From Eledone cirrhosa (lineage: Eukaryota): a stretch of DNA of 42,508 nt. The position numbers were made by a program, and so were the translations under genes. The notes under the pieces were generated by a model. The model did not search any database. It was not told the origin of the DNA and saw nothing but the letters and a program-made list of their open reading frames with translations. Below, piece by piece: positions 3,621 to 37,242 of this stretch. Numbering within the stretch: the first letter of the stretch is position 1; every line of letters starts with the position of its first letter. The stretch spans positions 1 through 42,508 of the forward strand of contig CAXHJY010001434.1 in NCBI GenBank assembly GCA_964016885.1, given 5' to 3'.

Positions 3621-3665
3621 TATCACCTACGTACGTTTCGCCCAGTTGGACTTCTCAAGGGCATA
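3621..3665 (-). ncRNA. Minimal type I hammerhead-like motif with variant core
   Basis: Minus strand TATGCC-CTTGAGAA-GTCCAACTGGGC-GAA-ACGTACGT-A-GGTGATA. Palindromic stem III and a GUA site are present, but the core deviates from CUGANGA. Confidence 0.5.
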
Positions 3666-3911
3666 AACAGTCACAAGTGTTCCTTATATAGTTTGGAAAG
3701 AGATTTGGGGGTTTAATCGACATCAAGATTCATTGTTCGCAAAATATCTTGTTTTGATTTTGCAGCAGGTCAAGGGAGGTAACTTTGGCCGTATTAGGGC
3801 AGTCTTTCCCGGATAATTTTTGGTATGCAGGGATCGTTTTCTGGGTGTTATTTTGCTGCGCCTGCCCGCCGGGGTGTTAAGACTTGTTGCAGGGAGATCC
3901 AGTGTGTTATT

Positions 3912-4448
3912 TCACTCTCCATTCTTAACCCATCTAAAGAAGGATATTTTTAAGCGATGTGTACAACTTATCGCTGTTTCAGCTCTGCTGTTGATGAGCT
4001 CGTGGGGTGCAGTTATGATGTGGTAGAGCTCCATGAGGCAAAGATCGCATTTCCTCATGAAGTTGTACGGTGCAGCCCTGTCGACAATCTCCCAGTGCGT
4101 GGAGAAGCTAATGTTTAAGTCCTTTAGTGATGTGATGTAGTCCGCGAGCAAGGTGGAGTGCCTTAGTTTTCTATTTGTGAAAGAGTGGAGATGTGTTCGA
4201 AACCTAATTTTGAACGGGCCGGAGGTGGCCCCTATATAATGTTTAACGCTATTGTGGCTAGTAATAGTGCATCTATATATAACCCTATCGGTCAAGCAGT
4301 ATCCTCTAAGGGGGCACCGTCCTCTGTCGCGGCAGTTGCAATTTCTGTCGCTGTTCCGTCTATTTCCCACGATAAGGCTATCATTGTTGCTGCCTACGTT
4401 GTTAGCTGCGCTACCGCAGCTGTCGTTAGCACAATTACAACCCACAGC
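3912..4448 (-). pseudogene. C-terminal GIY-YIG endonuclease domain of a Penelope-like element (RT lost by 5' truncation)
   Basis: [51 protein letters not shown]. The annotated start at 4490 lies in the microsatellite and is spurious. Confidence 0.88.
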
Positions 4449-4961
4449 ATATATGTATATATATACATATATATATATATATATATACATATATATACAT
4501 ATATATATATATTATACATATATATATATATATATATACATATATATATATATACATATATATATATAGATATATATATATATATACATATATATATACA
4601 TATATATATATATACATATATATATATATATATATATACAACATATACACATATATATATATATATACAACATATACACATATATATATATATATACAAC
4701 ATATACACATATATATATATATATACAACATATACACATATATATATATATATATATACAACATATATATATATATACATATACAACATATATATATATA
4801 TACATATACATATATATATACATATACATATATATATACATATATATATACATATATATATACATATATATATATATATATATATACAACATATACACAT
4901 ATATATATATATATATATATACATATATACATATATATATATATATATATATATATACATA
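4449..4961. repeat. (TA)n microsatellite with higher-order CAACATATACACATATA.. units
   Basis: Read directly. Confidence 0.95.
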
Positions 4962-34194: not shown

Positions 34195-34478
34195 TATACA
34201 TATATATATATATACAAATATATAGATATATATATACATATACATATATATATACAAATATATACATATATATATATATATACATATACAAATATATACA
34301 TATATATATATACATATACATATATATATATATATACATATATATATATATATACAAATATATACATATATATATATACAAATATATACATATATATATA
34401 CATATACATATATACGTATACATATATATATACATATACATATATATACATATATATATATATGCATATATATATATA
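34195..34478. repeat. (TA)n spacer between tail-to-tail RTE copies
   Basis: Read directly. Confidence 0.95.
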
Positions 34479-36419
34479 CATCATCATCATCATCAACGTT
34501 TAACATCTGTGTTCCACGCTTGCATGGGTTTGGACGGGGGTTTTCCCACTTGAGGCAAGAATGATTGTCTTGCTCGCATAGGACTGTCTGGCGGGTTTTC
34601 TACAGCTGGATGCTCTTCCTAACACCAACCACATTTACAGTGTGGGGCTGGGAGGTTTTTACCGTGTTGCCTACACGGCCACATTACAGCGTGGACTGTC
34701 TGGCGGGTTTTCTACAGCTGGATGCCCTTCCTAACACCAACCACATTTACAGTGTGGGGCTGGGAGGTTTTTACCGTGTTGCCTACACGGCCACATTACA
34801 GCGTGGACTGTGTGTTTTTTTGTCGTGACACCTACACGATCTCATTTGTTTCGGCCTGGATGTTCCAACATAACTTTACATTGAAGGGGCGGTGTGGATG
34901 GGGTGGGGGTGGTTGGACGGGGGTGTATTTTGTTAGAGATGCCTACTGGCTGTAGTAGGTTTTACTATGTATTTAGGTAAGGCGGGTCTTCTCTGTTACT
35001 GAGTACCGCCAAAGGTCTCGGTCCAGTGACATTGTCTTGGAGAGGTGTAAGTGTGTGAGGTCGGAATTTATCAGCTCGTCCCAGGTTTTTCTGGCTCTGC
35101 CTACTCCGTGGCTACCATCTATCTTTATTGCCCTGCACTTTGTTATACAGCTGTCGTCTTTCATGCGCATCACGTGACCATACCAACGTAGCCTTCTCTC
35201 GAGTAAACAACATCTGATCCCTCTTATTTCTAATTTTTTCCTTAGTTCGTTTATGCTTTGCCGTTCACGTATATTACTATTGCACATCCAGCGGAGCATG
35301 CAAGCTTCGTTCCTCTCTAGTCTGCGTATATCCTCTGCACACAATGCCCAGGTCTCACTGCCATGCAACATTGGTGTTCGTATGCAGGCATCATACAACC
35401 TGCCTTTCATTTTTAGGGAGAACACTTTAGCGGCTAATAGTGGTATAAGCTCTCTGAACTTTTTCCATCCAGTTCTGACTCTAGCTACTGTACTTTCAGA
35501 GCACCCTCCCCCACTGCTGATTTTGTCACCCAGGTAATGGAAGCTGTCCACTATTTCTATAGAACCCTCTGCGAAATTGAAAGAGCTAGTATTTTGTGGG
35601 CACTTGCTGCTACTTATTGCACCAGAGCACCAGCCACATGTAAAATCTGTGTTCTTAGTTAGCTTACCTGTGATCCCACTACATCTTTTATGCACCCATA
35701 CTTTGCCTTTGGGACATAAAATGGAGTTTCTACCTACGCCTTTCCTAGACACTGAGCATGGCCATTTCCCGGAAGGGACCGGCGCCTTATTTTCTCTCCT
35801 ACAAACTAGAACTTTAGTCTTAGCCAGGTTAATTTTAAGGCCTTTTGATTCTAGGCCGTAGTTCCATGTTTGGAATTTCTTCTCTAGCTCGGCCATTGAT
35901 TCAGCTATGAGCGTTAGATCATCTGCTTATAGGAGTTCCCATGGGCAGCCGGTCTTGAACTCCTCTGTTATAGCCTGAAGGGCAATAATAAATAGTAGGG
36001 GGCTAAGAACAGAGCCCTGATGGACACCAACTTTTACACTAAACTCTTCACTATATTCGTTGTTAATTCTAACCTTGCTGACTGTTTCTTTATACATGGC
36101 TTGTATAGCTCTCACAAGCCATTCGACAACACCTAGTTTTCTAAGAGCCCACCAGATAATGGAACGGGGGACTCTGTCGAATGCTTTCTCCAAGTCGACA
36201 AAAGCTAAGTATAGGGGTTTACTTTTAGCTAGGTACTTCTCCTGTAGTTGTCGTACAATGAAAAGAGCGTCTGTGGTACTTTTGCCTGACACAAACCCGA
36301 ACTGCATTTCATCTAGATCAATTCTCTCTCTGATTAGTTGCGCTATTACTTTTTCCGTGACCTTCATGACCTGGTCGATTAATTTAATGCCTCTATAGTT
36401 ACTCCTATCTTGGGCATCT
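34479..36419 (-). mobile_element. RTE family A copy 5. 5'-truncated; nonsense mutation at the Y of YADD; PHD cysteines mutated
   Basis: ORFs 35927-36601 (real from DRSNYRG) and 34973-35896 are separated by TAA at 35927-35929; (ATC)n tail at 34479-34494. Confidence 0.95.
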
Positions 36420-36488
36420 ACATATGCATACTGAAATACTAGTGTGTATATGAATACACACACGTATACATATGTATACATATGTATA

Positions 36489-37242
36489 TGGCTTTCTGGA
36501 GAATAGAGGGAAGGTGTTTCCTCGAAAACCAGTATGACTCTAAAAACCGGTTTGTCTGTGTGTTTACATACAGAATAGCTGGGTTGCTCACAGTAAAGCA
36601 ACCAGTGAAAGACTTGTTACATCTACATATGTATACGTGTGTGTATTCATATACACACTAGTATTTCAGTATGCATATGTAGATGTACATTTTTAACTTA
36701 ATTGTTTAAGCGTCAGTCATACAAAAGTGAGTTACAAACGAAACGAAATTTAATTTCGTTTCGTTATTTGTTTTTATCGTCTCCGCTGAACCGGTGCGTA
36801 CTCACACTCTATGCAAATTAGTCTGCCCACTACTAATTTTCATAGAAAAAGCATATAACGATATGTACTTTTACAATTCTCCAGAAAGGCCGGTAGATAG
36901 GTAAATATTGCTGATGAGTTGTAACAACAACGAAACTAGTTCAATATTCCTTGTCTGGCTTTCTGTAGAATAGAGGGAAGGTGTTTCCTCGAAAACCAGT
37001 ATGACTCTAAAAACCGGTTTGTCTGTGTGTTTACATACAGAATAGCTGGGTTGCTCACAGTAAAGCAACCAGTGAAAGACTTGTTACATCTACATATGTA
37101 TACGTGTGTGTATTCATATACACACTAGTATTTCAGTATGCATATGTAGAGGTACATTTTTAACTTAATTGTTTAAGCGTCAGTCATACAAAAGTGAGTT
37201 ACAAACGAAACGAAATTTAATTTTGTTTCGTTATTTGTTTTT
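36489..37242 (+). mobile_element. Partial-tandem hammerhead element with 467-bp period (Penelope pseudo-LTR or retrozyme-like)
   Basis: 36489-36776 ~ 36956-37242; hammerhead at 36904-36948; 3' end joined to (TA)n; inverted fragment at 36415-36476. Confidence 0.78.
36904..36948 (+). ncRNA. Minimal type I hammerhead ribozyme
   Basis: AATATTG-CTGATGA-GTTGTaacaACAAC-GAA-ACTAGT-T-CAATATT: 7-bp stem I, 5-bp stem II, palindromic stem III, GUU triplet. Confidence 0.88.

Follow-up and report, generated by a model that had tools for sequence, protein, structure and literature searches.

The hammerhead islands of the window

The DNA analysed here, positions 1-42508 of contig CAXHJY010001434.1 from Eledone cirrhosa (assembly GCA_964016885.1; this whole stretch is referred to as the window), contains hammerhead ribozyme motifs in short islands joined to (TA)n microsatellites. 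We set it against the 3.0-Gb assembly for genome searches. The window is a mosaic of (TA)n blocks, copies of APE-RT LINEs (long interspersed nuclear elements) and the short islands, and microsatellites make up 30% of its bases compared to 7% in a background sample of the genome. A sequence-only reading had listed nine motif stretches, all of which were found at their positions. The islands belong to eight repeated families (A to G and R), as follows (RT stands for reverse transcriptase, ORF for open reading frame, UTR for untranslated region and LTR for long terminal repeat).

3406..4449, minus strand: family A, 5'-truncated copy of a Hydra-clade Penelope-like element (endonuclease end, 3' UTR and pseudo-LTR)
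3912..4400, minus strand: family A GIY-YIG endonuclease fragment with CxCx5C, CxxC and CxH motifs
3621..3660, minus strand: family A type I hammerhead with U3-A8, an 8-nt palindromic stem III and a weak stem I; predicted cut after 3628
8922..10395, minus strand: family B, 5'-truncated Hydra-clade copy, with a short TA run (9854-9869) within the 3' UTR
9910..10395, minus strand: family B GIY-YIG endonuclease fragment with CxCx5C, CxxC and CxH motifs
9041..9117, minus strand: family B type I hammerhead with canonical core; predicted cut after 9053
10396..10634, plus strand: family C, ~240-nt non-coding element with a fixed 5' start, head-to-head with B
10436-10474, plus strand: family C hammerhead; predicted cut after 10469
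10773..11048, minus strand: family E, 3' end of a non-coding unit of 700 nt that occurs in tandem
Within the E copy, minus strand: 3' remainder of a hammerhead whose branched stem II measures 95 nt; the first core box is lost and the predicted site follows 10951
11375..11500, minus strand: family G, old decayed element end, with a hammerhead remnant (11416-11450) carrying an internal deletion
27738..27933, minus strand: family F, 3' end (27738-27914) of an element that is intact elsewhere at 6.9 kb and of the Hydra clade, plus an inverted second-terminus piece of ~20 nt
Within the F copy, minus strand: 3' remainder of a hammerhead whose stem II measures 115 nt; the predicted site follows 27799
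28134..28317, plus strand: another copy of family B, cut short at the first base of the core; the predicted site follows 28186
28418..29159, minus strand: family D, 3' part of a ~2.26-kb unit without a long ORF
28617-28674, minus strand: family D hammerhead; predicted cut after 28621
36489..37241, plus strand: family R, retrozyme-like tandem repeat with a 467-nt unit, 1.6 units present
36904-36948, plus strand: family R hammerhead; predicted cut after 36941
36415..36476, minus strand: inverted family R piece on the 5' side of the insertion

Type I hammerhead folds were confirmed at 9041-9117(-), 10436-10474(+), 28617-28674(-), 36904-36948(+) and, with the 5' arm of stem I missing, at 28134-28198(+). 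A palindromic stem III is present in these five folds, the 28134 copy having one substitution in the palindrome. The predicted cleavage sites lie 131-300 nt from the TA junction, in agreement with the ~120-300 nt proposed earlier for the canonical motifs. Among the four variant cores of that reading, the one in A (3621-3665) holds as a U3-A8 core, and the other three had been misread. CUGUUGA was rejected as the core at 10950-11040 (E) and 27791-27858 (F): in copies of the two families CUGAAGA stands 95 nt (E) and 115 nt (F) upstream of GAAA, and the window copies are truncated below this box. The plus-strand hammerhead at 11427-11465 (G) was also rejected; in fuller relatives (8 listed) the motif lies on the minus strand, and an internal deletion in the window copy runs through the core. 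Of the nine copies in the window, four (E, F, G and the second B) are broken. The features of type I hammerheads (core boxes, three stems and NUH site) are all present at the family level and are incomplete in these four copies.

A strict descriptor found 2 motifs in the window and none in 197 of 200 block shuffles; with the palindrome required in addition, none of the 200 shuffles gave a match. With a looser descriptor the window gave 3 motifs, compared to none in 95 and one in 5 of 100 shuffles. A and D escape the looser descriptor; they were identified by eye and with the help of their copies. In an Rfam scan of the window, Hammerhead_HH9 matched 36893-36964 with 38.6 bits, under its gathering score of 52. 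This was the only ribozyme among the 150 listed of 585 Rfam matches, which are dominated by matches of microsatellites to microRNA models. Three loci (E1, E2 and A) scanned with Rfam at the gathering threshold gave no match.

The islands are ends of dispersed repeat families

All eight islands were found to be high-copy and dispersed, none being single-copy. Genome searches returned 291-3184 first-look candidates per island, and the best 40 copies per family were 92-100% identical in seven families and 74-97% in G. We scored 3' junctions by a strict TA pattern directly after the 3' end of the family. TA followed in 24 of 25 cases for A, 39 of 41 for B and 32 of 35 for D. For F, 28 of 55 ends met TA and 26 more continued into the next tandem unit; for R, 30 of 86 met TA and 54 of the remaining 56 continued into the next unit.

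Each family has two termini, ~40-140 nt apart. Partial tandems, an inverted 5'-truncated partner and a tail between the termini were seen in F, R, C and D, and in G this Penelope-like arrangement was indicated only by neighbouring matches on the opposite strand. The tandem unit of family R measures 467 nt, and its hammerhead is identical in 55 of 66 copies. Family E reads round at 700 nt, with a longest Met-started frame of 77 amino acids in one unit, and D at ~2,260 nt, with no long frame in the one unit tested; few copies of either are in tandem. Family C has a common 5' start in 25 of 25 loci, and an inverted partner, ~40 nt shorter, is often present. Of 30 family A copies, 29 have the core UUGAGAA (U3-A8). 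Another hammerhead family of the U3-A8 type, with perfect stems, occurs at other loci (L123 and others), with 15 matches of the commonest form.

At 10395/10396 in the window, the 5'-truncated Hydra copy of B (minus strand) stands head-to-head with the 5' start of C (plus strand), and TA is present on the outer sides only. This fusion, a single case, possibly reflects the priming of two different RNAs at a single site.

The earlier proposal that many distinct hammerhead families, Penelope-like as well as non-autonomous, share the (TA)n niche is supported. The sharing of this niche, read earlier as convergence, corresponds to published behaviour of the Hydra clade, including Hydra-1_Obim (PMC8557442, section 11 and supplement), and is not an unexplained convergence.

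Families A, B and F encode proteins with Hydra-clade motifs

Family F is an intact, young, nearly invariant, tandem Hydra-clade element. At C1:420.37-420.40 Mb, four pseudo-LTR copies are spaced ~6.9 kb apart and enclose three open frames of 824 codons, and an 830-codon frame is present at two further loci. The protein is a whole single ORF with RT followed by a GIY-YIG endonuclease at the C terminus, and RWR, DKT (in place of DKG), YRDD, CxCx5C, CxxC and CxH are all present; section 11 of PMC8557442 uses such features to define the Hydra clade. By eye, it parallels the Hydra-1_Obim protein of the PMC8557442 supplement. In A, the order RT to endonuclease was observed in loci L033 and L047; in B, only the C-terminal part was seen, and it is collinear. 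The CxCx5C linker, together with CxxC and CxH around the conserved E and N, is present in all three families. The CCHH motif is absent from the translations, as judged by eye, and GxKF/Y is absent from F, on which alone it was checked. In 25 of 25 A loci a match to the F protein lay upstream and on the same strand; for B, 18 of 25 loci had a match, most of these being collinear and 0.8-1.7 kb upstream. The hammerhead near the 3' end is canonical in B, of the U3-A8 type with a weak stem I in A, and has the 115-nt stem II in F.

A Pfam scan returned no family for the F protein or for the two endonuclease fragments, and the first Atlas matches were unnamed eukaryotic clusters (0.98-0.99). When contigs of four sequencing runs were compared with the F pseudo-LTR, pieces of it were seen in runs from three organisms, no record spanning it. 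The one search of sequencing runs, made with F, returned no RNA run among those listed, a result that speaks neither for nor against expression. In the F unit at G000:C1:139364500-139374499, a ~4-kb AT-rich, TA/TG microsatellite-like 3' region is copied along with the element, and F may in this way spread its own target sequence.

The non-coding families are likely passengers

In the flanks examined (~1.5 kb), none of C, D, E, G and R was found to have a linked Hydra ORF of its own. F-protein matches were found near C in 1 of 25, D in 5 of 25, E in 4 of 25, G in 4 of 25 and R in 2 of 30 loci, at inconsistent places. R and E match the pattern of non-LTR retrozymes, i.e. a non-coding tandem unit with a type I hammerhead. 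The non-coding families (R, E, D, C and G) are likely to be passengers of Hydra-clade elements.

Alternatively, these five families could be driven by another Penelope-like clade (Neptune or Naiad), or could be long UTRs of autonomous elements with a distant ORF. The lack of a linked ORF in the flanks is in keeping with this, as is the fact that Naiads also prefer (TA)n and that Octopus Naiad families are listed. However, R, E and D close at 467, 700 and ~2,260 nt without a long ORF (tandems of E and D being few), C and D have an unpaired U..U beside the core as in many Hydra hammerheads, and cephalopod Naiads are reported as old remnants. We consider a non-Hydra driver or a distant ORF unlikely, and continue with the non-coding families as likely Hydra passengers.

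Hammerheads with a long stem II

We aligned seven E-type sequences from five subfamilies. Unconstrained RNAalifold recovered stems I, II and III, as well as two hairpins inside stem II, and 11 of 36 pairs were changed on both sides. The stem covariation that the sequence-only reading had proposed to look for was thus observed as compensatory changes, for family E only. The core is invariant apart from N7 and position 17, the latter never being G in the seven sequences. One E3 compensatory pair is polymorphic, with the 5' change in 5 of 10 copies and the 3' change in 8 of 10.

A pseudoknot of 5 pairs with the 5' leader was added to this model. With it, 93.4% of cells pair, compared to 36-45% in slid controls, and the covariation score is 0.252, compared to 0.134 ± 0.017 in shuffles (reached by none of 500, with a shuffle that ignores relatedness). 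The pseudoknot alone has 91% of its cells paired and no compensatory changes, and we offer it as a possible feature of the modelled fold, as a proposal only. A covariance model of E, run on 61 sources, recovered nothing beyond the three copies used in training, the remnant in the window and a single weak distant motif (E 0.017).

The insert of F is one long irregular hairpin, in which changes are mostly one-sided. A third long-stem-II family, with 79-82 nt, is present elsewhere (loci L326-L337, L276 and L192). Loops of ~30-35 nt are listed for spike-moss elements in the PMC8557442 supplement, and hammerhead stem II inserts of 80-115 nt were not found in the literature covered. These long forms suggest that searches with short-loop descriptors undercount such ribozymes.

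A model for the origin of the islands and the role of the ribozyme

We consider it very likely that each island represents the 3' end, joined to (TA)n, of one of eight repeated families, of which three code for Hydra proteins and the non-coding ones are likely mobilised in trans. The observations underlying this are the high copy number, the fixed 3' junctions to TA, the tandem and inverted arrangements, the two termini, and the Hydra motifs of A, B and F. The individual steps are modelled on the biochemistry of a Penelope-like element of a different clade (PMC11167929). (TA)n would be nicked by the GIY-YIG domain, with RT initiating on tandem or circular RNA at fixed internal positions that lie 40-300 nt downstream of the hammerhead. 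Early stops would end most cDNAs, and as a consequence the ribozyme-bearing pseudo-LTR end is what would remain. Second-strand priming would yield the inverted partner and the tail. Since every insertion keeps TA as its neighbour, elements arriving later would nest at the same place. Non-coding units would use the same Hydra proteins. By analogy, multimeric transcripts would be processed into single units by the hammerheads, which would likely act as dimers formed via the palindromic stem III. Computed monomer and dimer energies favour dimers, mostly not in the active fold, and were not used as support.

Several points weigh against this model. Only 17 of 34 C ends and 3 of 28 G ends satisfied the strict TA pattern; among the misses shown, most have a degenerate TA or TATC run, or a query end that is offset. 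The Hydra-clade assignment of A, B and F is based on motifs and, for F, on by-eye likeness, and the F unit (6,757-6,917 nt) far exceeds the usual <3 kb, which in PMC8557442 is a tendency and not a criterion. We infer the driver of C, D, E, G and R because no ORF is tied to them. Self-cleavage is a prediction that draws on published work. Stem I of A is weak, and its free-energy fold is other than the hammerhead. For stem II of F, one of 56 pairs is compensatory among 5 close sequences, and the unconstrained fold pairs part of the core. In PMC11167929, on the one Penelope-like system tested in vitro, the hammerhead was dispensable for insertion and cut only in the presence of the protein, and no reads started or ended at the hammerhead site.

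Alternatively, the same elements could carry hammerhead folds whose main role is to bind protein or to position RT, and which rarely if ever cleave themselves. Core mutants that left insertion unaffected and the protein requirement for cleavage (PMC11167929), low activity even as dimers (PMC4209133), and the core-trapping alternative folds of F and A are consistent with such a role. On the other hand, five E subfamilies retain the core boxes and have covarying stems, position 17 is never G in the seven sequences, and two families show U3-A8 double changes that preserve the catalytically required pair. A mainly structural role appears rather improbable, and we retain unit-length processing as the predicted function.

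Genome-wide load of hammerhead motifs

The background sample consisted of sixty 10-kb stretches, evenly spaced and taken from large contigs only (600 kb in total, no small scaffolds). It contained 60 descriptor matches, 53 of them with a canonical core, in 26 of the 60 stretches. Five shuffles gave 0-4 matches against the 60, and six decoy cores gave 0, 0, 1, 0, 0 and 0 against the 53. Forty-nine of the 53 motifs are at most 350 nt upstream of (TA)5, compared to 18.7% of 3,725 control positions. A perfect stem III palindrome is present in 23 of the 53, which comprise 32 sequence types, and stem II is at least 70 nt in nine, one of these probably by chance.

Extrapolation gives ~2.6e5 motifs genome-wide, about one per 11 kb (bootstrap 1.6-3.8e5), in an estimate that counts inverted pairs twice and misses broken copies. 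The genome is thus likely to carry a few hundred thousand such predicted ribozymes. Counts reported by other methods are ~2,000-9,000 motifs per genome (PMC4209133), ~5,000 motifs in mussel (PMC7229834) and, for active retrozyme copies, a maximum of 14,255 (bioRxiv 10.64898/2026.07.22.740005). No report on octopus hammerhead load or on Penelope-like hammerheads with a long stem II was found, in a literature search of partial coverage.

The nine motifs or remnants within the 42.5 kb of the window, together with its high microsatellite share, could indicate a special, host-selected ribozyme cluster. However, the looser descriptor gives 3 motifs per 42.5 kb in the window and 53-60 per 600 kb elsewhere. 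This density is ordinary for the genome, the background sample reaches a similar one, and 4 of the 9 window copies are broken; a selected cluster is therefore very unlikely. That the motifs are chance matches in AT-rich sequence, as the plus-strand reading at 11427 and the two CUGUUGA 'cores' indeed were, is practically negligible as an explanation, given the near-empty shuffles and decoy cores.

We further propose, tentatively and with more doubt than confidence, that 1.6-3.8e5 motifs in dozens of families constitute the largest load we found reported, spread by Hydra elements that are still active. In the same proposal, several families evolved the expanded 80-115-nt stem II insert independently, and the insert would regulate cleavage or recruit the Hydra protein in trans and be missed by short-loop descriptors. 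The window alone is ordinary, its kind being known. If the load is confirmed, one hammerhead per ~11 kb would make up a major sequence class of the genome and could cut intronic or read-through transcripts. An intact F beside many non-coding passengers would make the role of the Penelope-like hammerhead and the mobilisation of retrozymes testable.

Other features of the window

An open frame of 1040 codons at 22792-25914 (minus strand) encodes an APE-RT LINE with a PHD finger, and a direct duplication of ~400 nt (25920-26803) lies immediately 5' of this intact LINE. A second LINE family, with ~75% identity, is represented by about seven fragments and ends at (ATC)n next to TA. At 14332-15165 (minus strand) there is a Ser/Thr/Asn-rich open frame of 277 codons with no Pfam family above cut-off, possibly a host exon. 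A decayed hammerhead-like stretch at ~15870-15910 (plus strand), in the 15239-16025 island, had no copy among the loci examined. Repeated TA-flanked fragments without a hammerhead are present at 16712-16792, 29160-29260, 29346-29423, 31247-31465 and 39396-40000, and are likely to be ends of other families or elements resembling short interspersed nuclear elements.

Comparison with known systems

The kind of element described here is already known: Hydra-clade elements, their hammerheads, (TA)n targeting and the U3-A8 variant are published (PMC8557442 and PMC4209133, here and below with respect to the parts of the cited sources that were consulted). The scale, the diversity of families and the expanded stem II architecture may be new.

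The Hydra clade (PMC8557442) comprises Penelope-like elements with a C-terminal endonuclease (EN+), among them Hydra-1_Obim with a hammerhead and a (TA)n preference. Families A, B and F share with it the single ORF with RT and GIY-YIG, the CxCx5C, CxxC and CxH motifs, as well as RW[K/R] and DKT in F, the 3' hammerhead, the (TA)n insertion, and the tandem and inverted copies. One Octopus family is listed there, whereas we found at least three Hydra ORF families, none with the hammerhead of Hydra-1_Obim. Unlike the clade, F has a 6.8-6.9-kb unit, a ~4-kb microsatellite-rich 3' region and a 115-nt stem II, and A has a U3-A8 core.

The motifs resemble the minimal hammerheads of Penelope-like elements (PMC4209133) in the type I fold, the short palindromic stem III, the unpaired base beside stem II, the U3-A8 variant, the mostly single dispersed motifs and the inverted pairs. 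They differ in number, ~2,000-9,000 per genome there and ~2.6e5 by extrapolation here, with a different descriptor, and in the stem II of 80-115 nt, of which no example was found in the part of that source consulted.

R and E are similar to metazoan non-LTR retrozymes (PMC7229834; bioRxiv 10.64898/2026.07.22.740005) in having non-coding tandem units within the 51-972 bp range. Unlike these, they have fixed ends at (TA)n and inverted partners, as in Penelope-like insertions, and the D unit exceeds the size range.

Poseidon PAc of Anolis (PMC11167929) likewise has two fixed internal termini, a tail, inverted partners and an AT-rich target. It belongs to a different clade, and its hammerhead overlaps the ORF start, whereas that of F is ~350 nt upstream of the first Met. 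The tail length, ~40-140 nt in the families described here, is a further difference from Poseidon PAc.

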